A DNA stretch of 64,000 nt, from positions 282,775 to 346,774 of the forward strand of contig JAQUPX010000001.1 of NCBI GenBank assembly GCA_028716385.1, in the 5' to 3' direction. This DNA is from a bacterium. GTDB taxonomy: Bacteria; Hydrothermota; UBA3073; JACQXS01; JAQTXJ01. The notes beneath the pieces were generated by a model. It was not told the DNA's origin, searched no databases, and saw only the letters and a list, made by a program, of their open reading frames with translations. Positions 9,761-38,797 of this stretch are shown one piece after another (position 1 is the first letter of the stretch; each line of letters begins with the position of its first letter). The position numbers were made by a program, and so were the translations under genes.

Positions 9761-10137
9761 ACAAACAAAGAAGAGAAATAGTAATAGGGAAGCATACTTT
9801 CTATCTTGATAAAAGCAATATATTACGCATAACCGTTGTCGGGGAACCGGGAAACGAAACCGTAACCGCAATGAAAACACTACATGAGAAACTCGATGAC
9901 ATAGCTAAAGACAAGGTGAATTTCCTTATAGACCTTAACCGGGCAGGAAAGCCCTCTCCGGAAGTAAGAAATATGGAGAAGTTAATTTACCGGCATAAGA
10001 AAGTTAGAAAAATCGCTTTCTGCGGCGCGCATCCTGTTGCAAAAGTACTTGCAAATTTTACTATATCCGTCACAAAAAAGAAAGATATGCAGTTCTTTGA
10101 CACTGAAGAAAAAGCCCTTTCCTGGCTGAAAAAATAA
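9757..10137 (+). CDS. small STAS/SpoIIAA-like protein, tandem paralog 1 of 4 (fold assignment tentative)
   Basis: 126 aa; shares with the next three ORFs IGKHTxxLxxxNIL...VxG...KVxxLxDL...KPSxExR...KKVxKIAxxGxxPVAKV...KKxxxFFxTxExALxWLK; start overlaps receiver stop (ATGA). Confidence 0.5.
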   Translation: MNKQRREIVIGKHTFYLDKSNILRITVVGEPGNETVTAMKTLHEKLDDIAKDKVNFLIDLNRAGKPSPEVRNMEKLIYRHKKVRKIAFCGAHPVAKVLANFTISVTKKKDMQFFDTEEKALSWLKK

Positions 10138-10149
10138 TAAAAAATGAAC

Positions 10150-10214
10150 AAAGAAAAAAAGATGTAAAATTTTTCAATACGAAAGAATCGGCAATCGTAT
10201 GGTTACGGGAATAA
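10150..10214 (+). pseudogene. 3'-terminal remnant of a fifth STAS-like paralog (internally deleted copy)
   Basis: 10150-10214 is near-identical to 10941-11004 (the last ~21 codons of paralog 3, ...KKDVKFFNTKESAIVWL(R/K)E*); ATGAACAAA at 10144 mimics the paralog-1 start but is out of frame, giving M-N-K-E-K-K-M-stop. Confidence 0.55.
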
Positions 10215-10226
10215 CGCGTAAAGGAC

Positions 10227-10613
10227 GTGAAAATGAATAAAGAAGAAAGAGAAATATTAATAGGAAAGCATACCGTCTGCCTCGGTGAAGACAATATATT
10301 ATATATAACTATTGTCGGAGACATTGACGAAGAAAAAATAGAGATATTGTTTGAAACAATTAGTAAACTTCTGGAGATGGGAAAAGGAAAAGTAAGCGTA
10401 TTAGTAAATATTAGCAAAGCCAAGAAGCCTTCTGTAAAAACAAGAAACCATATCGCACAATTCCATACGAATAAAAAGGTCGGGCAGATTGCCATTTTTG
10501 GACTAACCCCGGTTGCAAAAGTAATGTCGGCTTTCGCCGTAGGAATTACTAAAAAAAGAAATATAAAATTCTTTGATACAAAAGAATCGGCTCTTGCCTG
10601 GCTAAACGAATAA
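10227..10613 (+). CDS. small STAS/SpoIIAA-like protein, tandem paralog 2 of 4
   Basis: 128 aa; same conserved motif set; AAGGA upstream. Confidence 0.5.
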   Translation: MKMNKEEREILIGKHTVCLGEDNILYITIVGDIDEEKIEILFETISKLLEMGKGKVSVLVNISKAKKPSVKTRNHIAQFHTNKKVGQIAIFGLTPVAKVMSAFAVGITKKRNIKFFDTKESALAWLNE

Positions 10614-10617
10614 TAAA

Positions 10618-11004
10618 ATGGAAAAAGGGAAAAAAGAGTTTTTTATAGGGGAGAACAGATTATACCTCGGGGAAGATAAAATACTTTATGCGGATTTTTC
10701 AGGGGAACTTACCGTGGATATAATAAATTCGTTATACGATTTTTTTAATCTCAATAAAACCAAAATGATGAACGAAGGAAAAGTAAAGATACTTATACAC
10801 CTTAAGAATCCAAAGAAATCTTCTCCTGAAGCCAGGAAATTAACATATACGTTGAGTAAAGATAAAAATATTGGCAAAGTCGCCCTCTTGGGAATTAACC
10901 CGGTTACAAAAGTAATCGCCTCTTTCTTTATGGGAAATTCAAGAAAAAAAGATGTAAAATTTTTCAATACAAAAGAATCGGCAATCGTATGGTTAAAGGA
11001 ATAA
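10618..11004 (+). CDS. small STAS/SpoIIAA-like protein, tandem paralog 3 of 4
   Basis: 128 aa; same conserved motif set. Confidence 0.5.
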   Translation: MEKGKKEFFIGENRLYLGEDKILYADFSGELTVDIINSLYDFFNLNKTKMMNEGKVKILIHLKNPKKSSPEARKLTYTLSKDKNIGKVALLGINPVTKVIASFFMGNSRKKDVKFFNTKESAIVWLKE

Positions 11005-11017
11005 TGCATACAGAGAT

Positions 11018-11410
11018 ATGAAAATGAAAAAACAAGAAAAAGAAATATGGGCAGGGCAAAATAGATTATGTTTCGGAGAAGACAAAATACTTTACGCAAC
11101 TCTTGTCGGGGACCTTTCTGCGGAAATAGTGAATACGTTATATGTATTTTTCGAACAAAATAAAAATGAAAATATGGTTGACGGGAAAGTAAGATTTTTT
11201 GTAGACCTTACTAATTCAGGGAAACCTTCTATGGAAGCAAGAAAATTGACTTATGCGCTGAGTGAAAGTAAAGACATCGGGAAATTTGCCATAATCGGAA
11301 TGAATCCGGTTGCAAGGGTAATAGCGGCTTTTTTTATGGGAAATTCAAGAAAGAAAGGTATGAAATTTTTCAACACAAGGGAGGAAGCGCTTGAATGGCT
11401 AAAGAAATAA
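11018..11410 (+). CDS. small STAS/SpoIIAA-like protein, tandem paralog 4 of 4
   Basis: 130 aa; same conserved motif set; 3' end overlaps the kinase start. Confidence 0.5.
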   Translation: MKMKKQEKEIWAGQNRLCFGEDKILYATLVGDLSAEIVNTLYVFFEQNKNENMVDGKVRFFVDLTNSGKPSMEARKLTYALSESKDIGKFAIIGMNPVARVIAAFFMGNSRKKGMKFFNTREEALEWLKK

Positions 11411-16530: not shown

Positions 16531-16559
16531 TTTTCAGTATCTTTTTCCTATATAAAATG

Positions 16560-17100
16560 ATTAGTATGTTTTGTCAAGATTTAAGAGTTTTTGGTAGCCG
16601 CAAGCTTTAGCTTGCGCAACTATTTCAAAATGTTAACATATTGACTTAGTAGTAACAGATTTAAGAGTTTTTGGTAGCCGCAAGCTTTAGCTTGCGCAAC
16701 TCTGCCTTTCCCTCTGCTTCCGCGTCCCGTGCATCTTGTCTCTTACAGTCCCTGTTGAAATTCTCTGTTTTTTCGTGTCCTTTTTTCGTAGTAAGTTTTT
16801 CTGTTTCTGTTCTTTTTATCTCTTACAAGTCTTAACAAGTAACAGATTTAAGAGTTTTTGGTAGCCGCAAGCTTTTTACCCTGAGCGTAGTCGAAGGATA
16901 GCTTGCGCAACTATTTCAAAATGTTAACATATTGACTTAGTAGTAACAGATTTAAGGGTTTTTGGTAGCCGCAAGCTTTAGCTTGCGCAACTCTGCCTTT
17001 CCCTTTGCTCTCTCCCCATCTTCGCGTCCCGTGCATCTTGTCTCTTACAGTCCCTGTTGAAATTCTCTGTTTTTTCGTGTTTAGCTGGCGTTTTCTGTTA
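16560..17100. repeat. tandemly duplicated ~290-bp intergenic unit with four copies of a ~45-bp hairpin element
   Basis: (a)GATTTAAGAGTTTTTGGTAGCCGCAAGCTTtAGCTTGCGCAACT at about 16585, 16660, 16855, 16945; flanking TTGACT-containing and CTCTTACAGTCCCTGTTGAAATTCT segments also repeated; the 16855 copy carries a ~22-nt insertion (TTACCCTGAGCGTAGTCGAAGG) in its loop. Confidence 0.6.
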
Positions 17101-17108
17101 CTAACTTT

Positions 17109-18596: not shown

Positions 18597-18699
18597 TTCA
18601 TCCCTAAGATACGGCTAAACAAACACCTTGTCAATTTTTTATCTGTTATAGTCATTATAGAAAGCCCTTGAGTCCGCCTGCCCACAGTTCTTTTTGGTA

Positions 18700-18870
18700 G
18701 ACCTGCCTTTTGTCATTCTCGTGAAAACGGGAATCCATTTCGTGGTTTAGTGCTTTGCCCGTCCTTTCCTGCCCGCCGTTCCTTTTGGTAGGCCTGCCTT
18801 TTGTCATTCTCGTGAAAACGGGAATCCATTTCGTGGTTGAGTTGTCATTCTGAGTCGAAGACGAAGAATC
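18700..18870. repeat. intergenic direct repeats (two copies of TTTTGTCATTCTCGTGAAAACGGGAATCCATTTCGTGGTT plus a related GTCATTCTGAGTCGAAGACGAAGAATC unit)
   Basis: Near-identical ~80-bp blocks at about 18690-18760 and 18780-18840, read directly. Confidence 0.5.
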
Positions 18871-19221
18871 TCTTTGTTATTTTTTCGGCGATAGTCTGCG
18901 AAAATCCCTGCCTGTCCGCCTCAGGCGGAGCAGGTGCGTCCAAAAAATTGTTTTCTATTTTTCGTGGTTACTTAGAGTTTGTTCCTCTCAGGAACATTAC
19001 TCTAAGTTATCCAGCTCAGCTGGGCCTTCTTTTGTTTTTATTTGTTTGGAGTTTACCCCGCTTTGGCGGGGTGGTTAAAGCTTTTCCATTCTCTTTCTTT
19101 TGTTTTGAACTTTGCGGCTTAGCGACTTGGCGCGAGATATTCCGTTTTCTATTTCTGTTCTCTGTTTTTGTCTCTTAAAGTCTCATCCCTGCCTGCCGGC
19201 AGGCAGGAAGTCCCTGTTGAA

Positions 19222-22314: not shown

Positions 22315-24177
22315 TTAGGTCTTCTCACTCAGTTGATTAAGCATTTTTTCCTGTGAAATTTTTACGGCCGCCATTTTTTCCCTTAATGCTGAATGTAGAT
22401 GGCTCCATGTTTCAAAATCACACTCTTCTCTAAGTTCACATTCATTACATCTAAAACATCTTGGGAGTTTTAGCCCGCTAAAAAAGTTGTATTCAATATT
22501 TTTAATAATTTTTTCTACTAATTGTTGCGAATAGAAAATCTCAAGTTTTTCTTTTGCCATTTTAGTATTATAATTCTTAAGCTTTTTTAAAACCAAATAA
22601 TCTCTTATCGCTGAAAAATAAGTAATTTCTTCCTCGTTGTTTTTTATATTTCCGGACGATAGTATATTAATAAATTTTTGCAATTCATATATCGCTTTTT
22701 TATATGAACCGGTAACTAAATGCAAAAACGAAAGTAGTAAAACAGGATTTATTCTGCTCCATTGAGAATCCCATTTACGCAAAGGGAGCCATGTAAAAGG
22801 GAGGATATTATTTATTTTATAGGGAGTCTTATATACGCTGTTGTTAACCAGTTCTTTGATTTCTTTGAATTCATCAATTTTTCTTTTATCTAAATCTATA
22901 AATAAATTATTTTTTTCTATTTTTTCTTTATGTAATTCTAACTCCTTCCATGAAGCTCTTCTGGAGTTAGTCCCCGGTACAATAACTTGATAACTTGGAA
23001 ATCCCAAAAAAGATACATCTCTTATAAATATAGGTCCTTTTGTTGCTCTATGTAATATATTACACATACGTTGATAGTGTAGTTTATTGTTAAATTTGTT
23101 ATTTGTGTTTGCCGACAAAGTACTATTATAAGATGGTTTTCCAAAGAAAAAACTGTTTGGATAAGCACCGTCATTCGTTTTTAGCAAGTTAAAAAAGTTG
23201 TTAGACCATCCGCCATTATTAATTTTTTGTTCGAATAATAAATCTTTTAAGTTTACTTTCGTTCCGCTTTTGTAGTCCAAAATATGTCTACCTTGAAATG
23301 TTTCTGTAATGGCGCGGGAAATAGCCTCATCTATATTAGGATGCGACCCAAAATTTACATGGTAGCTGCCTTTCCTTTTATCGTGCGCTATGACAGCAAC
23401 AACAGGCAACGCCATATTTAGAGAACAATCTTTAATTGAAATATGGAAATTACTATTTTTTTCTATTTCCTCAATCATAATCTTTAAGTGTGGGGAACGA
23501 GATATACAACTTTTGTTTAATTCCGGGGGAGTTAATTGCTTGTGGTAAATAACATCCATACAGTGCCTTTCACTTACTTCGCTCATCCCTTGCACCAATG
23601 CTTCGTAAATATTATTCCCGGCGCACATCCCCGTAGAACCATAATGATACCTTATCATCTCCAATGGCAAAAAAACAATTTTTCCGCTAATCACATCCGC
23701 AAATGGAATGCATAGCAATTTTCCTTCGTATGAAAAAAAATCCAGCCATTTTTCGGCATCCCCTTTCTGTCTGTCACACGGAGCAAAATTTCTTAACAAA
23801 TTCTTGTCGACAGACTTAACAAATTGGCGCGGTGTTAAAAATATTTCATCCGGGGAATAAATAAAATCAGAAATCTTATGCAGTGTTTTATAGTTTAATA
23901 TAAAACTATTATGATTTGCGGTGTTGAATTGATTTTGTATTCTTTCCATTAGTTCCGCATAAGCGCTGGCAAGCGCCGCTTCTTTTGACATCCCCTTCCC
24001 GTTTGAACCAATAAAACTATCATTAAAACTAATGCGTACCGAATATAAAGAATCTCCATTCTTATACCACCTGTCTTCATTAATCAAAACTCCTATTTTG
24101 TAAAAAATGTTTCTTATACGAGTTATAGTTTCTATGGGTTTTACATCTTTATATAAAACTGTCTGAACCTTTTCCAT
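22315..24177 (-). CDS. ycaO: YcaO-domain protein, full-length E. coli YcaO-type
   Basis: 620 aa; SVRISFNDSFIGSNGKGMSKEAALASAYAELMERIQNQF matches the YcaO ATP-binding core (GKG...AxxSAxxExxER); further blocks YHYGSTGMCAGNNIYEALVQGMSEVSERH and FGSHPNIDEAISRAITETFQGR line up with E. coli YcaO along its length. Confidence 0.85.
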   Translation of the reverse strand: MEKVQTVLYKDVKPIETITRIRNIFYKIGVLINEDRWYKNGDSLYSVRISFNDSFIGSNGKGMSKEAALASAYAELMERIQNQFNTANHNSFILNYKTLHKISDFIYSPDEIFLTPRQFVKSVDKNLLRNFAPCDRQKGDAEKWLDFFSYEGKLLCIPFADVISGKIVFLPLEMIRYHYGSTGMCAGNNIYEALVQGMSEVSERHCMDVIYHKQLTPPELNKSCISRSPHLKIMIEEIEKNSNFHISIKDCSLNMALPVVAVIAHDKRKGSYHVNFGSHPNIDEAISRAITETFQGRHILDYKSGTKVNLKDLLFEQKINNGGWSNNFFNLLKTNDGAYPNSFFFGKPSYNSTLSANTNNKFNNKLHYQRMCNILHRATKGPIFIRDVSFLGFPSYQVIVPGTNSRRASWKELELHKEKIEKNNLFIDLDKRKIDEFKEIKELVNNSVYKTPYKINNILPFTWLPLRKWDSQWSRINPVLLLSFLHLVTGSYKKAIYELQKFINILSSGNIKNNEEEITYFSAIRDYLVLKKLKNYNTKMAKEKLEIFYSQQLVEKIIKNIEYNFFSGLKLPRCFRCNECELREECDFETWSHLHSALREKMAAVKISQEKMLNQLSEKT

Positions 24178-24224
24178 AGTTTTAACTAATTCCCCTCATC
24201 TCCCTATCCGCCTTATTCTTTTCT

Positions 24225-24651
24225 TTTAATCTCTCCAATCTATTACCAACCCTTGATTTATCTAGGGATGGTTATCCAGCTCTGCTGGAAAATCTCCAAT
24301 CCAAAATCCAAAATCTATTACTTGCCTGCCCCGTACATTTATTGCACAGGGGCGCTCACTTGGTAGCCGCAAGCTTTAGCTTGCGCCTGTCCACCTTTTG
24401 TTTTGGCGGAAAGCGGGGAAGAATCTCGTTTTTCCCCTTCGCCCTTTGCTCTTCTCGCTCCTCCGTATCTCCCCAATTCGCATTCCAAAATCTTTTTTTT
24501 CAGTATCTTTTAATTCCCCAATTCCTTCTTTTAATCCGTTCAATCCCCAATCCCTGCCTACCGGTCAGGCAGGCAAAATCTAAAATCTATTACCAGCCCT
24601 TGAGTTATCTAGGGATGGTTATCCAGCTCCGCTGTGGCTGGAAAATCCGCC
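24225..24651. repeat. repeat-rich intergenic region containing remnants of T9SS-linker coding sequence
   Basis: Two copies of CTATTACCxxCCCTTGAxTTATCTAGGGATGGTTATCCAGCTCxGCTG (about 24235-24290 and 24585-24640); AATCCAAAATCCAAAATC and CCCTGCCTACCGGTCAGGCAGGCAAAATC blocks match coding sequence at 33585-33625; GGTAGCCGCAAGCTTTAGCTTGCGC hairpin at about 24360. Confidence 0.45.
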
Positions 24652-26370
24652 CTATCCCTCGTTTTCTATTGTTTGAAATAAATGCTGGTATAAGATATTC
24701 GTTTGTATCAATTCTCTGTGCGTCCCCGATGTAACAAAATTCCCCTTATCAAGAACTATCGTCCTGTCCGCTAAAAGCATCGTTTCTTTTGAATGACTGA
24801 TAACTATCGTTATTCTGTCGTCTTTGCCGTCTATTAAAACATTATGTATCGCTTTAATGTTGTTCGCATCAAGTCCTGCCGTGGCCTCATCCAACAGCAA
24901 TACGTCCGGTTTTTTTAGAAAAGCCCGCGCTATCGCCAGCCTCTGTTTTTGCCCGCCACTCAGATTTCCACCGCTTTCATTAAGTTTATGATTCAACCCG
25001 TCTTCTAATTGATTAATGAATTCCATTGCCTGGGCCCTTTTTAGAACAGTATCAATTTCTTCATCGGTTGAATTTAACTTGCCCATAGAAATGTTCTCTT
25101 TTATCGTTGCTAAAAATAAAAAAGGCGCCTGTTGCACTATTGCTATTTTATTCCGATACGAATCCAGGGATATTGAATTGATGTTAATGCCGTTTGCGCT
25201 TATCTCACCTTTCTCCGGCATATATACCCGCTGCAATAACTTAAATATCGTCGTTTTCCCCGCCCCGCTTTCCCCTACTAATGCTATGATTTCACCTTTC
25301 TTTGCGCTGAAAGAAACATTCTTAAGACCAAAATCATCCTTTTCGGAATATGAAAAACAAACTTCTTTAACGTTGAGCGTTTCTATGCTTTCAATATCAA
25401 TGCCTTCTTTCTTCTCCTGCTCTATAGAGAATAATTCCTGCACTCTTTTTATACAACTTTTCCCCGTTTGAAGAGATATGTTAAGATTCGTTAACCCGGA
25501 CGTTGAACTGAATACTTGCACCATAAGCATATTAAACGCAAAGAAACTGCCAAAAGTAAGCTCCCCTTTAATTATCAGGTATCCCCCCAGCCATATTAAT
25601 ACGACCTTCCCCAGGGTCGAACTTAGTTGCCCCAGCACAGATGGCTTGCAGGAATATACGAACCGTTCAATTGCAATATTAAACAACTCTGTTAATTTTT
25701 TAGCATACCTGCTTATAATTTCTTTTTCTGCTCCTAAATATTTTATTTCCAGACGCCCGGAAATGATTTCGTTCAAATAAAAAGTATTATTTGCTTTCTT
25801 CTCCAGCATTTTTATCGTTCTCTGGTTCATCCCGCGATTAAATAGCTTTAAAGAAATGGCAAAAATCGGGAGTATACTGAAAAACACTAAAGATAACGTA
25901 AGATTAAACTTCGCAATGATTATCACGCTAACTACAAGCGTAATCGCATCTTTTGTTAAATTTAACATATCGTCTATAAAAAACGTATTAACTCCTTCCA
26001 AATCTCCCTCTATTCGTCCCGTAAGATATCCCGACCCTTTTTGAGATAATTCTTTCCAGTTGGAATTAATAATTCGTCCCAATAATATTGACTTTAAATA
26101 GTTCCCGAAACCATACTTCAGGCAATTTGCCATATAAGTATCAAAAATGCTTATCCCTATAAGGCAAACTTGAGCAGCCAATATCGCAATAGCCCATTTT
26201 GTTAAAAGAAGATAGTCTTTAGAAGGCAAAACAATATCAAGGATATGTTTTGTCAGGAGCGGAATTATAACGACTAAAGCGACTTTCAATATGTTCCCAA
26301 CAACAATAAGTAGTGATGATGAAAAAGCAATCCCAAAAAAATATTTACCTGCTAATTTTCTTACTTTCAT
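24652..26370 (-). CDS. ABC exporter, fused permease-ATPase (no N-terminal C39 peptidase domain)
   Basis: 572 aa; N-terminal half with multiple hydrophobic helices; Walker A GESGAGKTT, signature LSGGQKQRLAIARAF, Walker B VLLLDEATAGLD; start overlaps the rSAM stop by 4 nt. Confidence 0.85.
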   Translation of the reverse strand: MKVRKLAGKYFFGIAFSSSLLIVVGNILKVALVVIIPLLTKHILDIVLPSKDYLLLTKWAIAILAAQVCLIGISIFDTYMANCLKYGFGNYLKSILLGRIINSNWKELSQKGSGYLTGRIEGDLEGVNTFFIDDMLNLTKDAITLVVSVIIIAKFNLTLSLVFFSILPIFAISLKLFNRGMNQRTIKMLEKKANNTFYLNEIISGRLEIKYLGAEKEIISRYAKKLTELFNIAIERFVYSCKPSVLGQLSSTLGKVVLIWLGGYLIIKGELTFGSFFAFNMLMVQVFSSTSGLTNLNISLQTGKSCIKRVQELFSIEQEKKEGIDIESIETLNVKEVCFSYSEKDDFGLKNVSFSAKKGEIIALVGESGAGKTTIFKLLQRVYMPEKGEISANGININSISLDSYRNKIAIVQQAPFLFLATIKENISMGKLNSTDEEIDTVLKRAQAMEFINQLEDGLNHKLNESGGNLSGGQKQRLAIARAFLKKPDVLLLDEATAGLDANNIKAIHNVLIDGKDDRITIVISHSKETMLLADRTIVLDKGNFVTSGTHRELIQTNILYQHLFQTIENEG

Positions 26371-27731
26371 AGTTTGTCCTTATAGATGAGTTTCATTATC
26401 CCACACTGGTATTCATCCGGAGTATATAAATTGCCGTTTGCCAATAAAGCAGCCCCCGGACACATTTTACAATAATTCTTTATACTACATATATTACACG
26501 TTTTCAAATCGTCTACTTTAATATTATGATGCATTCTTATTTCATCACTTCCCCATATCTCATCTATTGATTTGTTTCTAATGTTTTGACTCCCGTACCT
26601 CAATGTTGCACACGGGAAAACGTTCCCCTTAGCATCTATTGCAAAACTATAAGCTCCGGAATAACAATTTGCTGAATTTGGCCCCCTAATATCCTCTTCT
26701 TGTTGCAAACTCTCTCTTCCCACTTTGTTAATTAACCAATCAATCTGTGATAAAGAACAGAAAACATTTTGATTCATATTTCTATACAATCCTTTTCTCA
26801 TTTGGGTAATGTCGTAAGTATATCTTAAACCATAAGATGCGCATAATTTTTCCATTGCGGGAATCTGCCGGTAATTCATCGCCAAAACTGGGGTTTTAAT
26901 ACGGATGCGCATATTAGTTTTAGAAAGTATGGGAAGTAAAGTTTTTATATGCTCTGAGGCAGTTACTCCGCAAATCTCTTTATAAGTTTTTTCATTAGCT
27001 CCCAAAACGCTAATTTCTAACTTGTATACCCCAAGAGATTCCAAATGTTTTATAAGAGCCTTATTCAATAAATACCCATTTGTAAAAACTACTACTGCAA
27101 AATTTCTATCTATTGCCATCTTTATAATATTAAGAAAATCTTTTCTTATAAGAGGTTCTCCCCCTGAAATTGTAACTCTTAAACACTTTTTTTCTTTGAG
27201 CCAATTTAATATCTCTATAATTTCATTTAGTGAAAGGTCTTCGGATGTTTTTGATTTTTTACTTGGTATTTTGTTATAGCAATGTATACATTGGAAATTG
27301 CACATAGATGAAACCTCTATAAATGCCGACATAGGAAGTTTTTCTCCGGCATATAATCTACGTATTTTCTTAGAATCTAATATCTGCTTAGCATTAAATA
27401 GTTTTTCATTTTTGTTTGATTGGGATTTCATTATTTGTTCTTTATCAACAAACAAAATACTTTCGGCATTTAACCAATTTATTATTAATTTTATATTATC
27501 AACAATAAACTTGTGCGATATAATTATTTTCTTTTTATACGCTAAAGAAATTATATTTTTTTCAATCTTATTCTTGCTATTACCTTTTAAAAAAGAGTAT
27601 ACTATTAGTGCCCCAATTCCATTTATAAGGCTATAGCTATCTGTTTTTTTATTAAAAACAATTGCTTGATTTAGATTTTTAAAATATCTACAAATAAAAA
27701 TCTTATTTAATCTCGACATTTTTAGTCCCAT
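26367..27731 (-). CDS. radical SAM enzyme with C-terminal SPASM domain and ~130-aa N-terminal extension (possible peptide-recognition, RRE/PqqD-like)
   Basis: 454 aa; CNFQCIHC (CxxxCxxC) cluster; glycine-rich SAM motif VTISGGEP; C-terminal Cys cluster CNICSIKNYCKMCPG typical of SPASM; N-terminal region before the rSAM core is a small alpha/beta unit. Confidence 0.8.
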   Translation of the reverse strand: MGLKMSRLNKIFICRYFKNLNQAIVFNKKTDSYSLINGIGALIVYSFLKGNSKNKIEKNIISLAYKKKIIISHKFIVDNIKLIINWLNAESILFVDKEQIMKSQSNKNEKLFNAKQILDSKKIRRLYAGEKLPMSAFIEVSSMCNFQCIHCYNKIPSKKSKTSEDLSLNEIIEILNWLKEKKCLRVTISGGEPLIRKDFLNIIKMAIDRNFAVVVFTNGYLLNKALIKHLESLGVYKLEISVLGANEKTYKEICGVTASEHIKTLLPILSKTNMRIRIKTPVLAMNYRQIPAMEKLCASYGLRYTYDITQMRKGLYRNMNQNVFCSLSQIDWLINKVGRESLQQEEDIRGPNSANCYSGAYSFAIDAKGNVFPCATLRYGSQNIRNKSIDEIWGSDEIRMHHNIKVDDLKTCNICSIKNYCKMCPGAALLANGNLYTPDEYQCGIMKLIYKDKL

Positions 27732-27780
27732 CAGTATTTTACTTTTTTAATACATTATAAAATTAATAATCTACTCCTTG

Positions 27781-27803
27781 TGTACACCTGTAAAAGGTGT
27801 ACA
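27781..27803 (-). terminator. perfect 9-bp-stem hairpin between small ORF and rSAM gene (possible attenuator)
   Basis: TGTACACCT-gtaaa-AGGTGTACA, 17 nt downstream of the small-ORF stop and about 50 nt upstream of the rSAM start. Confidence 0.4.
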
Positions 27804-27819
27804 CAAGGATGCAATACAA

Positions 27820-27963
27820 TTACATAAGGACCATTGTACAATTATCCGTCATGTCAGTTTCATCTTCATTCAATCTACTAGGCCCTATACGTCTTGCTAA
27901 TTTCCCTGGTGTTGTCCCAGCCTCAATAGTTACGGTACTTTCAATTTTTGTTAGTTCAAACAT
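27820..27963 (-). CDS. unannotated 47-aa ORF, candidate precursor peptide
   Basis: Minus-strand ATG at 27963 with AAGGAGGTGA 8 nt upstream; translation MFELTKIESTVTIEAGTTPGKLARRIGPSRLNEDETDMTDNCTMVLM; stop TAA at 27820-27822; sits directly 5' of the rSAM-ABC operon on the same strand; below the 60-aa track cutoff. Confidence 0.35.
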   Translation of the reverse strand: MFELTKIESTVTIEAGTTPGKLARRIGPSRLNEDETDMTDNCTMVLM

Positions 27964-31548: not shown

Positions 31549-31697
31549 ATCCCCCTCCTTTTTTACCCGGCTCAGCTACAAACTCTTGGATACAATCCTT
31601 AGAGTTTGTTGTCCAGCTCAGCTGTGGCCGTGGCTTTTTTTATTTTGCTTTCTGTTTTGTCATTGTCATCCCGCACTTGATGCGGGATCCATTGTTT

Positions 31698-33131
31698 TCA
31701 CTTTATTAGTACCATTTTCTTTGTCTCTTTAAAATTATTAGTTGTCACCCTCACAAAATATACCCCACTCTTTTTTATATTCGGCGTAAACACATAATCC
31801 CCTTTGCTTAATGCTCCATTGTAAATAACCTCTTTCGTTCTCCCGCACAAATCGTAAATTTTCAATTCCGCATTTATACTCTTTGGCACGCTCAAATAAA
31901 TCTTATCTTTTATTATTTCCATTTTTGATATTTGATTTTTGATTTTTGATTTCTCCTCTATCCCTACCTTAACATATTTTAATGCAAGCGAATAGTTCCA
32001 TCCTGCCGAAATTGCAGTAACGCCTGTCAGGAGGCTTGTCTGGACAGGCTGATTACGCTGGGTGCCGGTAGAATCTCCAAGCTGTCCATAACCGTTCTGC
32101 CCCCAAGCCCATACGGTACTGTCGGATTTTATTAATGCGAGTGAATGTTCCCCTCCTGCTGAGATTGCAACGGCATTGGTCAGATTAAGTGTCTGCAAGG
32201 GCACGGAATGAGGATTATAATCACTACTTCCGATACCAAGCTCCCCATAGCCGTTATATCCCCAAGCCCATACGGTTCCGTCAGGCTTTAATGCGAGTGA
32301 ATGCGCGCCCCCTGCTGAGATTGCAATAACACCGGTCAGGAGTTTTACCTTGACAGGCTGATTATTCTGGGTGGTGGTAGAATCTCCAAGCTGTCCGTAG
32401 TAGTTATATCCCCAAGCCCAGACTGTACTGTCAGACTTTAACGCAAGTGAATGGTGACCTCCCGCTGAAATTGCAACGACATTCGTCAAAAGATTTGTCT
32501 GGACAGGTACGAAATGAGTATTGTAATCGCTACTTCCGATACCAAGCTGTCCGGAGCCGTTATATCCCCATGCCCAGACGGTTCCGTCAGATTTTAACGC
32601 AAGTGAATGCGAACCTCCCGCAGAAATTGCAATAACATTCGTAAGAAGTTTTGTTTGCACAGGATAACGGCGATAGGCAGTAACAGTAGAATCTCCAAGC
32701 ACTCCGGAACCATTACTTCCCCAAGCCCAGACAATGCTGTCAGATTTTAAAGCAAGTGAATGCGAACCTCCCGCAGAAATTGCAACAACATTAGTCAAGA
32801 ACTTTGTCCGGACAGGATTATATCTATAATAAAAAGTAGTAGAATCTCCAAGCTGTCCGTAGGCATTATATCCCCACGCCCAGACAGTGCTGTCATAGTT
32901 TATGGCAAGCGAAAAGTCATATCCTCCTCCGCCTTTTCCTGCACAGATTGCAAGAACATTAGTCAAGATTTTTGTCCGGACGGGTTGATTCCGTTGCCAA
33001 GTATTAGTAGAATCTCCAAGCTGTCCCCAGTCATTACTTCCCCATGCCCATACATTTTCATCGGCTTTTGCGACACCTGCGCTTCCTGCTATCAACAGGC
33101 TTACGACCCACATAAAACTTTGTTTCTTCAT
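31698..33131 (-). CDS. RCC1-repeat propeller protein with T9SS C-terminal tail
   Basis: 477 aa; seven-plus repeats of VWAWGxNxYGQLGDST...GGxHSLALKSDxTV; C-terminal sorting tail. Confidence 0.7.
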   Translation of the reverse strand: MKKQSFMWVVSLLIAGSAGVAKADENVWAWGSNDWGQLGDSTNTWQRNQPVRTKILTNVLAICAGKGGGGYDFSLAINYDSTVWAWGYNAYGQLGDSTTFYYRYNPVRTKFLTNVVAISAGGSHSLALKSDSIVWAWGSNGSGVLGDSTVTAYRRYPVQTKLLTNVIAISAGGSHSLALKSDGTVWAWGYNGSGQLGIGSSDYNTHFVPVQTNLLTNVVAISAGGHHSLALKSDSTVWAWGYNYYGQLGDSTTTQNNQPVKVKLLTGVIAISAGGAHSLALKPDGTVWAWGYNGYGELGIGSSDYNPHSVPLQTLNLTNAVAISAGGEHSLALIKSDSTVWAWGQNGYGQLGDSTGTQRNQPVQTSLLTGVTAISAGWNYSLALKYVKVGIEEKSKIKNQISKMEIIKDKIYLSVPKSINAELKIYDLCGRTKEVIYNGALSKGDYVFTPNIKKSGVYFVRVTTNNFKETKKMVLIK

Positions 33132-33345
33132 CTTTCCCCCTTAGAAACTCTTATTTTTTTATGTTTAGAGTTTCTTATCAGTGTTTCTGCATTAGTTGGA
33201 CTTTCCCGCTCCGCCTGAGGCGGACGGATTAGACCAACTTATCAGTGTTCCTGGCTTTATCAAATTCCCGGCAAATCCGGGTTTTTTTTATTTTGCTTTC
33301 TGTTCTGTCATTGTCATCCCGCACTTGATGCGGGATCCATTGTTT

Positions 33346-34407
33346 TCATTTTATTAGTACCAGTTTCTTTGTCTCTTTAAAATTATTAGTTGTCACCCTC
33401 ACAAAATACACCCCATTCTTTTTCACATTCGGAGTAAACACATAATCCCCTTTGCTTAATGCGCCATTGTAAATAACCTCTTTCGTTCTCCCACACAAAT
33501 CGTAAATTTTCAATTCCGCATTTATACTTTTAGGCACATCCAAATAAATCTTATTTTTTCTTATCTGTAAATCCGCATTCCCCAATCCCTGCCTACCGGT
33601 CAGGCAGGCAAAATCCAAAATCGATGGGTCTTCTATCCCTGCACCGGCATCATAAACTGCTATTGTTGCCCTGCCGCTATCATCCCATGCTATTGCTTCG
33701 CTGGGCGACGAAGCGGAAATCTCTCCCCCGGCTCTAAAGTATACATTTGAAATACCTGAGAAAACGTAATGAGACGCAAGATTTGTGAAGTATAAATCAA
33801 GAGGATAGAGAGTGGAAAGCCCTACGTTCATATTAAATGCATTAGCCACGGGAGCTATGTTCTGATTAGGACAATATGCATTTTCAGACATTATTAAAAT
33901 TCCACCTGTTTTTAAGAGCCAGTTGAATGCATTTAAAGCGAAAGCTTTGTTATCTGCAGAATCAATATACTCACTGTCACAGAAATTACAGTCCCCGACT
34001 AACAATACGCGCCCGTTTTTTCTTTTAATATATTGAGCAAGAGAATCTACTTCAGAGGGTTGATAAAAACTATCCCAGGCACATGCGGAATTAATTACTA
34101 TAACATCGTAACCCGATAGATTCATAAAACCTATACCTGTGTCAACGACATCTATGCAATAATCATTAGAATCTAAAAGAGCAGTTAATCTGCTATACCC
34201 TCCGGAAGGAAGGTAGTAGTTACTGTATATTCCGTGCGTAGTATCCCACAGAACTGAGTATGTTGCCGTTTTCCCCTTTTTTTGTAATGATGGTTTTTGG
34301 GATTCATTCGTAGTATTAATTATTCTTCCTGTAGTAGCATCGTACTGAGCATAAGTCAGGTTACAAAATACAATTATTCCTGCAAAGACAAGCCGAATTT
34401 TTCTCAT
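33346..34407 (-). CDS. secreted hypothetical protein with T9SS C-terminal tail, duplicate A
   Basis: 353 aa; signal-like N-terminus; first ~270 codons about 98 percent identical at nucleotide level to 37724-38797. Confidence 0.55.
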   Translation of the reverse strand: MRKIRLVFAGIIVFCNLTYAQYDATTGRIINTTNESQKPSLQKKGKTATYSVLWDTTHGIYSNYYLPSGGYSRLTALLDSNDYCIDVVDTGIGFMNLSGYDVIVINSACAWDSFYQPSEVDSLAQYIKRKNGRVLLVGDCNFCDSEYIDSADNKAFALNAFNWLLKTGGILIMSENAYCPNQNIAPVANAFNMNVGLSTLYPLDLYFTNLASHYVFSGISNVYFRAGGEISASSPSEAIAWDDSGRATIAVYDAGAGIEDPSILDFACLTGRQGLGNADLQIRKNKIYLDVPKSINAELKIYDLCGRTKEVIYNGALSKGDYVFTPNVKKNGVYFVRVTTNNFKETKKLVLIK

Positions 34408-34414
34408 AACTTTA

Positions 34415-36040
34415 TTATCTCATTAGAATCAATTTCTTTGTTTCTCTGTAATTATCCGTTTTTAACTTCACAAAATAAATCCCTGTTTTTAGGTCTTTTG
34501 AGTTATTATCGGTACCATCCCAGGTGACAGTGGTCATTGGGGAATTAGGTAATTGAGTTATTGGGAAACTCTTTACTAATTTGCCGGCAATGTCGTAAAG
34601 TTTCAAGGAACAGTCCCGACTGTTCCCTACGGAGAAGGAAATGACTGTTGATTTTGAGAATGGATTTTTGTTTACCCTAAGCGTAGTCGAAGGGGGAGTG
34701 ATGTTTACTTTTTCCTGTATGCCCATTTTTTCGTTAGTTTTATAATGATACCCCATATCTACATATTTTTTATCAAAGACCGAGTCAGTTCTTGTTGTGT
34801 AAAGATGGAACCCCAAATCTTCTGCAAGCGTGTCTCCTGCCTCTACGCAAGGGCTTTCGACTGCTTGTCCTGCCGCTATCTGACTAAGGAAAAACGAATC
34901 TGCGCCCGATATTGCAAACATTGGGGGGCGGGAAATATTATAAAAACTATCACAAGGAATTCCGTTGCGATTTACACCCCAAGTCGTATCTCCGACTCCC
35001 GGACAAAAAACAAAATTTCCGGCCGAATTACCCCAAACGTTATTAAAAGCAATAAGAGAAGGAGTGATTTGACCACAATTATAACAATCTATCCCATATC
35101 CCGAACAACTAACAATAATATTATTAAGAATTACTGCGGGAGAAGGTGACTGACTGAGCCAGACCTGAGTAGGAGGAGCAGAACCGGAAGACCACGTCGT
35201 ATTATTTGAAATAGTATTATTTATAACGAAACTATTAGAGCGACATATATCAATTGCATAAGCGCGTTGAGATATGTTTCTACATATAAGATTGTTTTTT
35301 ATGGTATCAGACGAGGAGACACATCTTATTCCTCCGCCATCGAACCAAACTGAATTGTTTTTTATAATATTCCCAAATATTATAGAGCCTGTATTGGAGT
35401 CAAGATAAATGCCTCCGCCATATCCTCCTCCAATGGGTGTCACTGAGAAAAGCCCGCCATTTCCAACTATTTGATTATACATTATTTTAGCTCCATTAGA
35501 ATGACCACAATAAATAGCTGACCCTAAATGCCCTTTATTGCCTGATAAAACATTAAAGGTGATTTTAGTTGCCCCGCCCAAACAGCAAATTCCACCGCCG
35601 TTAGAGGAAATGGACCCATTTACAAAATTATTAAGTATCTTGTTATTGGTAATGGTAAGATAAGAATTATAACAATATATACCGCCTCCAACACTATCAG
35701 TAACATATCCCCATTGGATTGTAAAACCGGAAATTATTGTGTTGGAATCAAGAGTATTGCAGTTAAAAATCCTATTAGTACTATCCGCATCAACTATCGT
35801 AGAATCCGCACCTTTCTCGCTCATCAAAATTACCCCATTTTCCATATTTATCGGGAAAGTTTCTCCGGATGCCGTGTCGTAAATTCCCGGGGCTACGAGA
35901 ACAGTATCGCCATATTTAGCCGAATCTTCAACTGCATGTTTTATTGTTGAAATATATGATGGAACATACCATATTTTTGCCTGCAAAGAGTTAACCACAA
36001 ATAATAAGGTTGTAACAACAAAACAATTTACTCTTTTCAT
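34415..36040 (-). CDS. right-handed parallel beta-helix repeat protein with T9SS C-terminal tail
   Basis: 541 aa; repeated GGGIYxxNSxxTIxNNxIxNN units typical of pectate-lyase-fold repeats; C-terminal sorting tail. Confidence 0.65.
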   Translation of the reverse strand: MKRVNCFVVTTLLFVVNSLQAKIWYVPSYISTIKHAVEDSAKYGDTVLVAPGIYDTASGETFPINMENGVILMSEKGADSTIVDADSTNRIFNCNTLDSNTIISGFTIQWGYVTDSVGGGIYCYNSYLTITNNKILNNFVNGSISSNGGGICCLGGATKITFNVLSGNKGHLGSAIYCGHSNGAKIMYNQIVGNGGLFSVTPIGGGYGGGIYLDSNTGSIIFGNIIKNNSVWFDGGGIRCVSSSDTIKNNLICRNISQRAYAIDICRSNSFVINNTISNNTTWSSGSAPPTQVWLSQSPSPAVILNNIIVSCSGYGIDCYNCGQITPSLIAFNNVWGNSAGNFVFCPGVGDTTWGVNRNGIPCDSFYNISRPPMFAISGADSFFLSQIAAGQAVESPCVEAGDTLAEDLGFHLYTTRTDSVFDKKYVDMGYHYKTNEKMGIQEKVNITPPSTTLRVNKNPFSKSTVISFSVGNSRDCSLKLYDIAGKLVKSFPITQLPNSPMTTVTWDGTDNNSKDLKTGIYFVKLKTDNYRETKKLILMR

Positions 36041-36048: not shown

Positions 36049-37638
36049 CTATTTCATTAAAATCAGTTTCTTCGTTTCTTTTATATTTCCTGCTGTTAGC
36101 CTCACAAAATACACTCCGCTCTTTTTTATGTTCGGCGTAAATGTATAATTGCCTTTGGTTAATGTACCTGAATAAACAGTGCTTTGAAGTCTACCACATA
36201 AATCGTAAATAGTTATTAGGGCATTAGGACAATAGTTATTAGGAACAGAAAGATAAATCTTTCCTTTTATAATTTTCAATTCCAAATTCCGAAATCCAAA
36301 ATCCAAATTCTTTTTATCCGCCTTCTCTTCAACTCCTATCTGTGTTCCATAATGGTATCCCAAATCAACCCATCCGGTATCAGGCTTTCCGTCAGTGGTA
36401 TTGCCACCCAGAAAGAGAAACTCATTATTAACAATATAATCCCCGCACCCTGAAACATTTTGCTGGTAATAATTTCCTAACGTCCCGCTCGTAAATCCCG
36501 GGTCAATGTTTATGTTATAAAAGCTATCGCAGGCATTTCCGTTCCTGTTAGTGCCCCAGGAGAAATTGCCAACTCCCTGCGGAGCATTATGAAAATTATC
36601 GGGATTATTGAGATAAAAACCGTTATATCCGATAAAAACTTTAGCCAGACTGTCGCAATATATTCCTCCTCCTGTTATTGCGCTGTCATAGGCAATTATG
36701 TTATTTTTTATAATTATAGAGTCCTGTCCCGAATCATTTCCCCAACAAAAAATACCGCCACCTCGTCCATCCCCATTATTAAACGGGTAATAATTATTAA
36801 CTATTGTATTGTTGATTATCTCTACCGGAGCAGAGCACTCAATTCCCATTCCAAAACCTTCTACATACCAGCCATTGCATGCATAATTGCTATCTATAAG
36901 ATTATTAAAAATAACGGCTTTTATGCAATTTACACACTCAATTCCGCCTCCATAAGGACTAGCTTCTATTGCATTATTTTTAGCTATAACATTATTCTTG
37001 ATAGTGATAATTGTAGCTTCTGCATATATTCCGCCCCCCCCGTATGCCTCATAGTATTTTGAGATATCCCCTTGAAGGTTATTTCCATCTTCTTTTACTA
37101 ACATACCGGCAGACTTTTTATTGTTTTTAAGATTGTCGGCCTCAGAGCTATTATACTTTATTATGTTATTCTCAATCAAAGCGGACCCTCCGTAAACAAA
37201 TATACCCCCACCCGCTGCAGGGAGATTATAAGCAGGATCTAACGTGTTATCCCGAATAATATTATTCCTTATAATTATATTTGAATTGTCGGAATATATT
37301 CCACCCCCATAAGAATGAAAACTACTGCCATCACTTATGGTAAAGCCATCAATTAGAACTGTATCGGTTAAACCAATGCATTTGATAACTGAGTACCCTC
37401 CGCTAATGATTGTGCTTTCCGGGCCTTCTTCGCTTTTGAGATGGATACCCCCCTTCATATTTATACTGTTTATACCGCCGGAGTAAGTCCCTTTTGAGAC
37501 AAGAACCACATCTCCCGACACGGCAGAATCAATTCCCGTTTGAATTGTAGAATAGTCAGCCGGGATACGAATTGTTTTTGCTTCAATATTACCCGTAATA
37601 AAGAATATCAAAGACACAAAAAATAAATATGTTCTCAT
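36049..37638 (-). CDS. right-handed parallel beta-helix repeat protein with T9SS C-terminal tail
   Basis: 529 aa; GGGIYSDNSNIIIRNNIIRDN and GGGIFCWGNDSGQDSIIIKNNII units; C-terminal sorting tail. Confidence 0.65.
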   Translation of the reverse strand: MRTYLFFVSLIFFITGNIEAKTIRIPADYSTIQTGIDSAVSGDVVLVSKGTYSGGINSINMKGGIHLKSEEGPESTIISGGYSVIKCIGLTDTVLIDGFTISDGSSFHSYGGGIYSDNSNIIIRNNIIRDNTLDPAYNLPAAGGGIFVYGGSALIENNIIKYNSSEADNLKNNKKSAGMLVKEDGNNLQGDISKYYEAYGGGGIYAEATIITIKNNVIAKNNAIEASPYGGGIECVNCIKAVIFNNLIDSNYACNGWYVEGFGMGIECSAPVEIINNTIVNNYYPFNNGDGRGGGIFCWGNDSGQDSIIIKNNIIAYDSAITGGGIYCDSLAKVFIGYNGFYLNNPDNFHNAPQGVGNFSWGTNRNGNACDSFYNINIDPGFTSGTLGNYYQQNVSGCGDYIVNNEFLFLGGNTTDGKPDTGWVDLGYHYGTQIGVEEKADKKNLDFGFRNLELKIIKGKIYLSVPNNYCPNALITIYDLCGRLQSTVYSGTLTKGNYTFTPNIKKSGVYFVRLTAGNIKETKKLILMK

Positions 37639-37723: not shown

Positions 37724-38797
37724 CTATTTCATTAATATTAGTTTCTTTGTCTCTTTTATATTCCCCGCACTTACCCTCACAAAATACACCCCACTCTTTT
37801 TTATATTCGGAGTAAACACATAATCCCCTTTGCTTAATATGCCATTGTAAATAACCTCTTTCGTTCTCCCGCATAAGTCGTATATTTTCAATTCCGCATT
37901 TATACTCTTTGGCGCGCTCAAATAAATCTTATCTTTTAGCAATTGGAGCGAAGCGACATCCCGCCCTGGCGGGACCAAAATCGATGGGTCTTCTATACCT
38001 GCACCGGCATCATAAACTGCTATTGTTGCCCTGCCGCTATCATCCCATGCTATTGCTTCGCTGGGCGACGAAGCGGAAATCTCTCCCCCGGCTCTAAAGT
38101 ATACATTTGAAATACCTGAGAAAACGTAATGAGACGCAAGATTTGTGAAGTATAAATCAAGAGGATAGAGAGTGGAAAGCCCTACGTTCATATTAAATGC
38201 ATTAGCCACGGGAGCTATGTTCTGATTAGGACAATATGCATTTTCAGACATTATTAAAATTCCACCTGTTTTTAAGAGCCAGTTGAATGCATTTAAAGCG
38301 AAAGCTTTGTTATCTGCAGAATCAATATACTCACTGTCACAGAAATTACAGTCCCCGACTAACAATACGCGCCCGTTTTTTCTTTTAATATATTGAGCAA
38401 GAGAATCTACTTCAGAGGGTTGATAAAAACTATCCCAGGCACATGCTGAATTAATTACTATAACATCGTAACCCGATAGATTCATAAAACCTATACCTGT
38501 GTCAACGACATCTATGCAATAATCATTAGAATCTAAAAGAGCAGTTAATCTGCTATACCTTCCGGAAGGAAGGTAGTAGTTACTGTATATTCCGTGCGTA
38601 GTATCCCACAGAACTGAGTATGTTGCCGTTTTTTCTTTTTTTTGTAATGATAGTTTTTGGGGTTCATTCGTAGTGTTAATTATTCTTCCTGTTGTAACGT
38701 CATATTGAGCGTAAGCTATGTTAAAAAATACGATTATTCCTGCAAAGACAAGCCGAATTTTTCTTCTGCCTGAGGCGGATTTCGCTTTGCTCAACAT
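37724..38797 (-). CDS. secreted hypothetical protein with T9SS C-terminal tail, duplicate B
   Basis: 357 aa; see duplicate A; the linker before the tail differs (VPPGRDVASLQLL versus DFACLTGRQGLGNADLQI). Confidence 0.55.
   Translation of the reverse strand: MLSKAKSASGRRKIRLVFAGIIVFFNIAYAQYDVTTGRIINTTNEPQKLSLQKKEKTATYSVLWDTTHGIYSNYYLPSGRYSRLTALLDSNDYCIDVVDTGIGFMNLSGYDVIVINSACAWDSFYQPSEVDSLAQYIKRKNGRVLLVGDCNFCDSEYIDSADNKAFALNAFNWLLKTGGILIMSENAYCPNQNIAPVANAFNMNVGLSTLYPLDLYFTNLASHYVFSGISNVYFRAGGEISASSPSEAIAWDDSGRATIAVYDAGAGIEDPSILVPPGRDVASLQLLKDKIYLSAPKSINAELKIYDLCGRTKEVIYNGILSKGDYVFTPNIKKSGVYFVRVSAGNIKETKKLILMK

Follow-up and report, generated by a model that had tools for sequence, protein, structure and literature searches.

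Small repeats in the exporter–YcaO junction of a RiPP-type operon and a putative mobile hairpin of 21 nt

The 64,000-nt stretch of DNA analysed here (the window; contig JAQUPX010000001.1 of assembly GCA_028716385.1, from a bacterium of the Hydrothermota) carries a putative operon for a ribosomally synthesized and post-translationally modified peptide (RiPP), in which a spacer of 474 nt separates an ABC exporter gene from a YcaO gene. This spacer is likely a mosaic of small non-autonomous repeats that accumulated in a once-tight exporter–YcaO junction, one of them, a 21-nt hairpin (HP), behaving like a mobile mini-element. The first-pass annotation of the stretch had noticed motifs in the spacer that elsewhere encode linker peptides of type IX secretion system (T9SS) proteins, and had proposed either that a degraded T9SS cargo gene separates the two genes or that mobile hairpin units had inserted into coding linkers. 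The second proposal is supported for HP by an empty site, its presence in more than 120 contigs among the matches listed and a polymorphism in dnaK. The D-F-G-F linker motif is not a hairpin unit but a tandem heptamer array, (GATTTTG)n, a widespread and mostly non-coding simple repeat.

The exporter–YcaO junction and its spacer

The minus-strand gene order in the window is a precursor-like open reading frame (ORF; 27823–27963), a radical S-adenosylmethionine (rSAM)-SPASM gene (26367–27731), the ABC exporter (24652–26370), the spacer (24178–24651) and YcaO (22315–24177). A contig from the Joint Genome Institute (JGI), L004, carries a 40-aa ORF and the rSAM-SPASM, exporter and YcaO genes in the identical order, with identities to the window of 46% for the exporter, 42% for rSAM, 37% for YcaO and 36% for the precursor-like ORF. 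The first-pass annotation had suggested comparing the junction with orthologous loci, and in L004 the exporter and YcaO genes overlap by 20 nt. Among the remaining YcaO homologs at most 70 nt lie between YcaO and its neighbour gene; at the homolog loci L002, L003, L252 and P0008 the neighbours differ and the junction is not comparable. Given the overlap in L004 and two full-length proteins in the window, the spacer probably represents added DNA; the simplest reading of these sequence comparisons is that ~450 nt came into an exporter–YcaO junction that had formerly been tight. The genes concerned are as follows.

24652–26370, minus strand: ABC exporter (Pfam ABC_membrane and ABC_tran); C terminus complete, 46% identical over its full length to the L004 exporter
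22315–24177, minus strand: YcaO (Pfam YcaO, 4e-52); full length, 97–100% covered by homologs
27823–27963, minus strand: MFELTKIESTV...DMTDNCTMVLM, probably the RiPP precursor peptide; located upstream of the rSAM gene

The precursor-like ORF matches the equally placed 40-aa ORF of L004 with an E value of 2e-4, and a TDNC motif is common to both; the L004 ORF ends in ...NHTDNCAATVP. In the window, a perfect hairpin with a 15-bp stem (27775–27809) lies directly after the precursor-like ORF. Minus-strand 22315–27963 holds a complete small RiPP-type cluster, orthologous to that of L004. The spacer was also considered as a RiPP precursor site and rejected, since it holds no plausible ORF and the precursor sits upstream of the rSAM gene.

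The spacer has a GC content of 45–48%, against 29–40% in the flanking genes, and its sense (minus) strand is purine-rich. As had been stated at first pass, it is non-coding, with stops throughout all three sense frames. Its fold is a string of local hairpins and is more stable than that of shuffled sequences (z = -5.9 for DNA and z = -2.9 for sense-strand RNA). The sense-strand backbone consists of heptamer-type repeats, GATTTTG, GATTGGG and GGATTAAAAG, in which stem-loops are embedded. The twice-repeated unit of ~55 bp reported earlier is real; it measures 56 nt, its copies at 24232–24287 and 24579–24634 are 91% identical, and a GCTGGAAAATC tail follows both. Each unit is composed of the stem-loops CCAGC..GCTGG and CCAnCCCT..AGGGATGG, and 20 nt of the copy at 24232–24287 recur in intergenic DNA of a related genome (L168:5503–5522). 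An 8-nt direct repeat, CCCTATCC, starts at 24202 and again at 24650 and brackets 448 nt; the pair is a possible target duplication. With palindromic units and other short motifs inside an operon, and with modules that recur in other intergenic regions, the spacer is built in the manner of a bacterial interspersed mosaic element (BIME). Its parts, from the exporter side to the YcaO side, are listed here, with the strand where one applies.

24178–24651: whole spacer, a mosaic of small repeats between the exporter stop (24652–24654) and the YcaO start (24175–24177)
24650–24657: CCCTATCC, copy 1 of the 8-nt direct repeat; overlaps the exporter stop codon
24579–24647: 56-nt unit, copy 1, with its GCTGGAAAATC tail; stem-loops CCAGC..GCTGG (24623–24641) and CCAGCCCT..AGGGATGG (24593–24618)
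24574–24592, minus strand: heptamer array GATTTTA GATTTTG (sense), adjoining HP
24553–24573: HP, the 21-nt hairpin (CCTGCCTACCGGTCAGGCAGG on the plus strand), between heptamer units
24466–24552, minus strand: degenerate heptamer or 'GATTGGGG-GATTAAAAG' modules; linker-like peptides GLGIERIK and GIGELKDTEKKDFGMRIGEIR in different frames
24415–24437: stem-loop GGGGAAGAATCTCGTTTTTCCCC (GGGGAA..TTCCCC), from the fold of the spacer
24362–24387: stem-loop GGTAGCCGCAAGCTTTAGCTTGCGCC (the GCAAGCTT hairpin); four further copies in intergenic 16531–17108
24329–24352: imperfect stem-loop CCCCGTACATTTATTGCACAGGGG, from the fold of the spacer
24289–24319, minus strand: heptamer array GATTTTG GATTTTG GATTGGA GATTTTC, containing the 18-mer AATCCAAAATCCAAAATC singled out at first pass
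24232–24294: 56-nt unit, copy 2, with its GCTGGAAAATC tail; stem-loops at 24276–24288 and 24246–24271
24202–24209: CCCTATCC, copy 2 of the 8-nt direct repeat; the YcaO start lies 25 nt downstream

The 21-nt hairpin element and the heptamer arrays

HP (CCTGCCTGACCGGTAGGCAGG) has a 7-bp stem and a 7-nt loop, and the window holds two exact and two variant copies. The exact copies lie in the 29-mer CCCTGCCTACCGGTCAGGCAGGCAAAATC, which, as the first-pass annotation had seen, occurs in the spacer (24552–24580) and in a T9SS gene (33587–33615), exactly twice in the window against 0 expected; in coding sequence (CDS) 33346-34407 it encodes ILDF-ACLTGRQ-GLG. A clean empty site for the HP of CDS 33346 is found in CDS 45725, which reads GATTTCG/GATTGGGG. 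HP is also present at the equivalent T9SS-linker position of the related genome L168, as part of a 37-nt heptamer+HP block.

The exact 21-mer occurs in more than 120 metagenome contigs of 30–68% GC with unrelated flanks; here and below, contig counts, contexts and percentages for HP are those among the matches listed (at least 120). Contexts include nesting within the loop of another hairpin (L154, L155, L209, L216 and L236), placement in heptamer or octamer arrays (L225, L195, L211 and L146) and tandem copies (L242). About 35% are in open frames of at least 900 nt, and all four stop-free frames are in use, giving LPTGQAG, PAYRSGR, ACLTGRQ and CLPVRQA. The ORFs that carry HP read, from their sequence, as dnaE, dnaK, class II ribonucleotide reductase (RNR), smc, phosphoglucomutase (PGM) and histidine kinase, assignments of which that of dnaK was checked by search. 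At 119 distinct sites the flanks give no signal other than a purine at -1 in 90% (G 66%, A 24%) and a weak preference for T at +1, and they do not lengthen the stem.

The dnaK gene supplies a polymorphic site. In L190, from Candidatus Zambryskibacteria of the candidate phyla radiation (CPR), the filled site reads AAAGA/CCTGCCTACCGGTCAGGCAGG/TGC and the protein, P0123, reads EKALKD-LPTGQAG-APT, whereas DnaK orthologs 95–96% identical to P0123 (P0125–P0128) lack exactly the seven residues LPTGQAG. Compared with the empty AAAGA/TGC, exactly 21 nt have been inserted and no target sequence is duplicated. HP is shown to be a distinct unit, some of its sites being empty and others filled, in coding and non-coding DNA alike. 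The occurrence of one exact 21-mer in very different uncultured lineages, together with the clean presence/absence polymorphism in an essential gene, dnaK, makes the movement of palindromes of less than 30 nt testable.

The DnaK loop that follows EKALKD carries mini-inserts that vary by genome (P0123, P0145, P0151 and P0233; L190 and L249–L251; Parcubacteria and Zambryskibacteria). These are LPTGQAG (HP), LPASAEGQAG (another GC hairpin), LPAQSG and VSAGSDASLQL, the last of which is similar to the D[VF]ASL module in T9SS linkers of the window; in L251, another Parcubacteria genome, a different GC hairpin occupies the HP site. From these sequences, the loop resembles a hot spot at which tiny palindromes insert. 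The viral-contig collection gave 0 matches to HP and to the GCAAGCTT hairpin, and a phage vector for either was rejected. No paper in the literature searched contains the HP sequence, the HP peptides or the heptamer 18-mer.

The heptamer arrays account for the other motif of the first-pass annotation. Its 18-mer AATCCAAAATCCAAAATC (24298–24315) has 11 matches in the window at up to three mismatches, against 0.26 expected, and the near-copies apart from 24291–24315 all fall inside CDS 31698, 33346, 36049, 45725 and 46985. The D-F-G-F linkers are as described, with translations NLDFGFRNLELK (CDS 36049), ILDFGLGNADL (CDS 45725) and SDFGFRIGELK (CDS 46985). A 20-mer of the array, GATTTTGGATTTYGGATTGG, was found in more than 120 genome stretches from many phyla, among them Acidobacteriota (many Pyrinomonadaceae), Cyanobacteria (Nostocales), Chloroflexota, Planctomycetota, Verrucomicrobiota, Rhodothermales and Zixibacteria; of these, cyanobacteria and Chloroflexota are not known to have a T9SS, nor is the phylum of the CPR bacterium in whose dnaK HP sits. 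The (GATTTTG)n array often begins at the stop codon of a gene (loci L005–L124), and in 45 of 126 cases an inverted CAAAATC array lies within 160 nt of it; we know of no name for this architecture of (GATTTTG)n, short spacer and (CAAAATC)n. A few GATTTTGGATTTYGGATTGG matches are simply the ILDFGLA codons of Ser/Thr kinases (L094, L119 and L120). In long open frames, heptamer arrays are under-represented (38% vs 61%); this is a weak proxy, given that none of the six frames of the array is closed and that long frames in GC-rich genomes can be spurious.

The spacer is not the only place in the window where such DNA has collected. Perfect hairpins of at least 7 bp number 27, compared with ~5 in shuffles; 18 are non-coding on a crude ORF map and two lie in probably spurious ORFs, whereas non-coding DNA makes up 12% of the window. 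Three of the seven others are in T9SS linkers, 190–245 nt before the stop codon. One intergenic copy of the GCAAGCTT hairpin carries a nested 24-nt loop insertion (16866–16907). The two variant HP copies are both outside the spacer.

8199–8218: HP-like variant, intergenic
19188–19207: HP-like variant (CCTGCCTGCCGGCAGGCAGG), splitting a tctcttaMagtc..gtccctgttgaa motif that is unbroken at about 16745, 17045 and 20005

Further repeats were seen in passing. Intergenic 16531–17108 holds four copies of a ~80-nt unit (..gatttaagagtttttGGTAGCCGCAAGCTTTAGCTTGCGCaact..) and two of a ~75-nt 'cttgtctcttacagtccctgttgaaattctctg' unit, and 18677–18842 is a 91-nt tandem repeat (1.8 copies, 93%) with GTCATTCTCGTGAAAACGGGAATCC hairpins. 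Beside the latter stands a GTCATTCTGAG..CGAAGAATC hairpin that is unbroken in the window and carries a nested CCTGAGCGCAGTCGAAGG insertion in L168 (5630–5680). Four tandem paralogous ORFs of ~125 aa, each ending in ...FFDT(E/K)E(K/S)A..WL(K/N), lie at 9760–11400 between a response-regulator gene and a PAS histidine kinase.

These observations would fit the following course of events. The original junction may have been tight and probably translationally coupled within the RiPP operon. A backbone of GATTTTG, GATTGGG and GATTAAAAG heptamer arrays, which would grow by slippage, may then have received lineage-specific stem-loops (the two 56-nt copies and the GCAAGCTT hairpin) as well as HP, so that the whole 448–474 nt would have been added stepwise through insertion and slippage. 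HP itself would insert as exactly 21 nt, without target-site duplication and preferentially 3′ of a purine, into heptamer arrays, into the loops of other hairpins and into protein genes when the frame stays open. Its route could be a single-strand cut- or copy-and-paste like that of HUH/Y1 transposases, as for the insertion sequences IS200/IS605 or for repetitive extragenic palindromic (REP) sequences and their REP-associated tyrosine transposases (RAYTs). By analogy with REP/BIME, the structured purine-rich spacer might uncouple YcaO translation from that of the exporter and affect mRNA stability.

T9SS linkers and the competing explanations

More than 15 genes in the window encode T9SS cargo proteins that carry a Por_Secre_tail domain. 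When the 3′ ends of seven paralogs are aligned, the C-terminal domain (CTD) is conserved and the stretch from G[IV]EE to IKxKIYL is different in each gene. Every T9SS paralog linker examined is a heptamer array or a hairpin, a point that had escaped the first-pass annotation.

33579–33622, minus strand: linker of CDS 33346-34407; GATTTTG heptamers and HP (33588–33608), ILDF-ACLTGRQ-GLG, upstream of Por_Secre_tail (aa 285–350)
45948–45980, minus strand: linker of CDS 45725-46939; GATTTTG module without HP, empty site GATTTCG/GATTGGGG
36278–36310, minus strand: linker of CDS 36049-37638; GATTTTG heptamer array encoding NLDFGFRNLELK
47233–47264, minus strand: linker of CDS 46985-48568; GATTTTG array, SDFGFRIGELK, outside the seven-paralog alignment
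31921–31952, minus strand: linker of CDS 31698-33131; different heptamer array, AAATCAA x4.6
44444–44467, minus strand: linker of CDS 44209-45618; different heptamer array, GGTGAGT x3.4
43601–43624, minus strand: linker of CDS 43370-44197; hairpin with a 10-bp stem, AGCTTGAAGC-cctc-GCTTCAAGCT
34671–34693, minus strand: linker of CDS 34415-36040; encodes PSTTLRV, the element being the nested insertion at intergenic 16875–16897
37940–37975, minus strand: linker of CDS 37724-38797; hairpin TCCCGCCagGGCGGGA and GTCGCTTCGCTC module

The AGC-cctc-GCT loop type of the CDS 43370 linker hairpin is also found in intergenic hairpins at 7224 and 15840, and the CDS 37724 linker occupies the place of the heptamer/HP linker in its near-identical paralog, CDS 33346. 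Related genomes (L125, L128 and L168) likewise have the linker peptides ILDFGLGNADL, PSTTLRA and LDVASL; a protein search with the CTD returned only two relatives. Between genomes, the heptamer/HP module is 97–100% identical at the nucleotide level, against 60–87% for the adjacent CTD and ~45% for the cargo domain. The spacer probably resembles T9SS linkers because the stretch between G[IV]EE and the CTD, which is presumably flexible, tolerates in-frame heptamer arrays and hairpins. This class of secreted proteins uses translated non-coding repeats as the linker before the T9SS sorting signal. That linker DNA is more conserved than neighbouring coding DNA hints at a role at the DNA level, in homogenisation or cassette shuffling.

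Three side observations concern these genes. CDS 33346 and CDS 37724 are near-identical up to ...GIEDPSIL, have wholly different linkers and rejoin in the CTD, a sequence pattern that points to the linker as a place of recombination break points. Three cargo genes are each followed, ~10 nt downstream, by an identical hairpin, ATCCCGCActtgaTGCGGGAT (31668–31688, 33316–33336 and 45695–45715); the duplicated or converted 'CTD cassette' therefore includes its 3′ stem-loop. The annotated start of CDS 37724, ATG TTG AGC GAA GCG AAA TCC (MLSEAKS; 38774–38796), is a copy of the GAGCGAAGCGAAATCC repeat; it thus probably falls within a repeat of the intergenic kind, with the true start further downstream.

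Several points weigh against a spacer made of accumulated repeats with a mobile HP. The four-gene architecture is found only in L004, at 37% YcaO identity, and the polarity of insertion versus loss is a matter of parsimony. A 21-mer of the 56-nt unit gave 0 matches in the genome-contig and metagenome-contig collections, which lends no support to dispersal or mobility of this unit. The bracketing 8-nt repeat may be due to chance. Among the window ORFs, a Pfam scan found neither a transposase nor a RAYT, nor any other candidate for mobilising HP. A linker that is more conserved than the CTD is not explained by passive tolerance of junk repeats. Finally, the 44-nt heptamer+HP block shared by the spacer, CDS 33346 and L168 could have been copied by recombination and not have arisen by two HP insertions.

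This last point can be taken further, as ectopic recombination or gene conversion in which the block would have been copied as a whole from a T9SS linker into the spacer or the reverse, with the repeats serving as short patches of homology. The alignment with the linker region 33560–33640 that the first-pass annotation had called for yields 44 nt at 98% (24544–24587 and 33579–33622) and none beyond; the 37-nt block in an L168 T9SS linker, the mosaic CTD paralogs with break points at the linker (CDS 33346 and CDS 37724, for example, agree up to CGATTTTGG and then differ) and a linker conserved beyond the CTD, as homogenisation predicts, all agree with such copying. However, it accounts for only ~10% of the spacer, and the more than 120 unrelated HP contexts and the dnaK polymorphism need true insertion. 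We regard recombination as an unlikely explanation, and it is compatible with accumulation of repeats, not exclusive of it.

Less probable still is that the spacer is a selected cis-regulatory element whose stem-loops and purine-rich repeats set the exporter:YcaO expression ratio, through mRNA processing or stability or through uncoupled translation, or bind a protein. The sense-strand RNA folds below its shuffles, the heptamer/HP module is conserved at the nucleotide level across genomes, and the position within an operon is like that of REP/BIME, known stabilisers of upstream mRNA (PMC3733652). However, the structure is one of independent local hairpins, as is typical of repeats. Rfam gave no match at gathering score across the whole window and none at E ≤1 in 24100–24750, and a scan of the spacer found no sigma-70-like promoter or intrinsic terminator, although the consensus used may not suit this organism. 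The unit is absent from the ortholog L004 and from public collections, and therefore yields no covariation evidence.

That a T9SS cargo gene decayed between exporter and YcaO until only its linker was left is very improbable. This genome abounds in T9SS cargo genes, and the spacer does contain ILDFACLTGRQGLG, identical to CDS 33346 (tblastn, E 4e-7), along with GIGELKDTEKKDFGMRIGEIR, which weakly matches GVEEKADKKNLDFGFRNLELK of CDS 36049 (E 0.02). These two were, however, the only matches when 14 T9SS genes and proteins were compared with the spacer by blastn and tblastn. No CTD or cargo-domain similarity was detected, although the CTDs of paralogs are 70–90% identical at the DNA level, and the spacer contains at least four linker-like modules across three frames, not one linker in one frame. 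The orthologous operon of L004 has no gene at the junction, and these repeats are also found in CPR housekeeping genes and in non-coding DNA from phyla for which no T9SS is known. Similarity is confined to short motifs, which the first-pass annotation itself had named as the refuting outcome; the dead-gene proposal fails, and a false lead at this locus is removed.

An assembly artefact, in which the spacer would be a mis-join or collapsed repeat in a metagenome-assembled genome, is hardly credible: although an independent short-read contig, apparently from the same organism (L001; Logan SRR22315506), breaks off within the 56-nt unit, 89 nt upstream of YcaO, because of which the region appears hard to assemble, L001 matches 24178–24266 at 100% identity, contiguous with an identical YcaO gene, the source contig is 953 kb long, gene order on either side agrees with the L004 operon, and independent assemblies of related genomes (L168 and L125) confirm HP and the heptamers.

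If the spacer is indeed a mosaic of accumulated repeats, 474 nt of structured repeat DNA now divide a RiPP operon, and the dosage of YcaO relative to the exporter may have changed. Repeats of this kind also fragment assemblies of short reads, and in annotations they give rise to spurious ORFs and odd inserts of 7 aa. A more far-reaching and tentative possibility, which we would not yet favour, is that HP (CCTGCCTGACCGGTAGGCAGG) is an undescribed, horizontally spread mini-element, among the smallest of mobile DNAs, that enters single-stranded or hairpin DNA without target duplication and is, or recently was, active in CPR/Patescibacteria and in a T9SS-bearing bacterium. Together with the heptamer arrays it might then form a nucleotide-conserved 'joint' before T9SS sorting domains, and perhaps a recombination patch by which CTD cassettes are attached to new cargo genes.

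Comparison with known repeat systems

REP families are known as species- or genus-specific, whereas identical HP copies occur in very different lineages (a T9SS-bearing bacterium, the CPR Zambryskibacteria and contigs of 30–68% GC). The likeness between the two is nevertheless considerable. REP/BIME are short, GC-rich, imperfect palindromes with many copies, form mosaics between genes of one operon and are presumed selfish, with side effects on mRNA, and HP fits their description as a multi-copy imperfect palindrome of 20–40 bp. For the REP super-families tagged with GTAG/CGTC (Di Nocera et al. 2013), intragenic in-frame copies, also in dnaE, and copies nested in other palindromes are documented (PMC3733652), so that the kind of element is already known. 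IS200/IS605 and REP-RAYT systems also leave no target duplication and favour hairpins (PMC3733652). HP differs from REP in that it has no terminal GTAG/CGTC tag, its GTAG being internal, across the junction of loop and 3′ arm, and in that it consists of single 21-nt units, not dimers; no RAYT was seen among the Pfam-scanned ORFs of the window. Unusual for REP-like repeats are, moreover, the sharing of one exact sequence across lineages with its polymorphism in dnaK, the T9SS linkers built of translated repeats and the conservation of that linker DNA at the nucleotide level.

Small dispersed repeats (SDRs) are, according to Elhai et al. in 2008, reportedly hairpin units of 21–27 nt that are apparently mobile and essentially non-coding. 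HP shares with them the size, the hairpin, the lack of coding capacity and the nested insertions, and SDRs are likewise inserted into tandem heptamers and into HIP1. As a hairpin within repeats with both empty and filled sites, including the nested insertion at 16866–16907 and dnaK, HP agrees with what defines an SDR. What sets it apart is that it occurs in lineages outside the cyanobacteria and often lies in frame within genes. SDR1–8 are reported only in Nostocaceae (PMC5861425).

Palindromic selfish DNA that sits in frame in functional protein genes, and adds a short peptide at surface loops, is also the hallmark of the Rickettsia palindromic elements (RPEs). HP behaves in this way in the CDS 33346 linker and in dnaK, and in the ORFs read as dnaE, RNR, smc and PGM. 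RPEs are said, from work by Ogata et al. in 2000, to be about 100–150 bp long and restricted to Rickettsia, whereas HP adds 21 nt (7 aa) and crosses lineages.

Two further classes bear on the rest of the spacer. It resembles MITEs, the miniature inverted-repeat transposable elements, in being non-autonomous, structured and intergenic, with a 448-nt block bracketed, perhaps by chance, by an 8-nt direct repeat; in contrast to MITEs, the block lacks terminal inverted repeats, its terminal units are direct, and no second copy of it was found. Heptamer simple sequence repeats (SSRs) are known as GGGAATC in Xanthomonas and, with short tandemly repeated repetitive (STRR) sequences, as GGGGA(T/C)T in Nostoc/Calothrix, and are attributed to polymerase slippage (Rehm et al. 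2015, PMC4692102). Like the arrays described here, they are intergenic tandem heptamers, often inverted, and of variable length between relatives (PMC4692102). The unit here is instead GATTTTG, codes for T9SS linkers and is a landing site for HP. What is new relative to all these repeats is the combination of a single 21-nt unit, the lack of a terminal tag, identity across lineages and the systematic use, with heptamers, in T9SS linkers.

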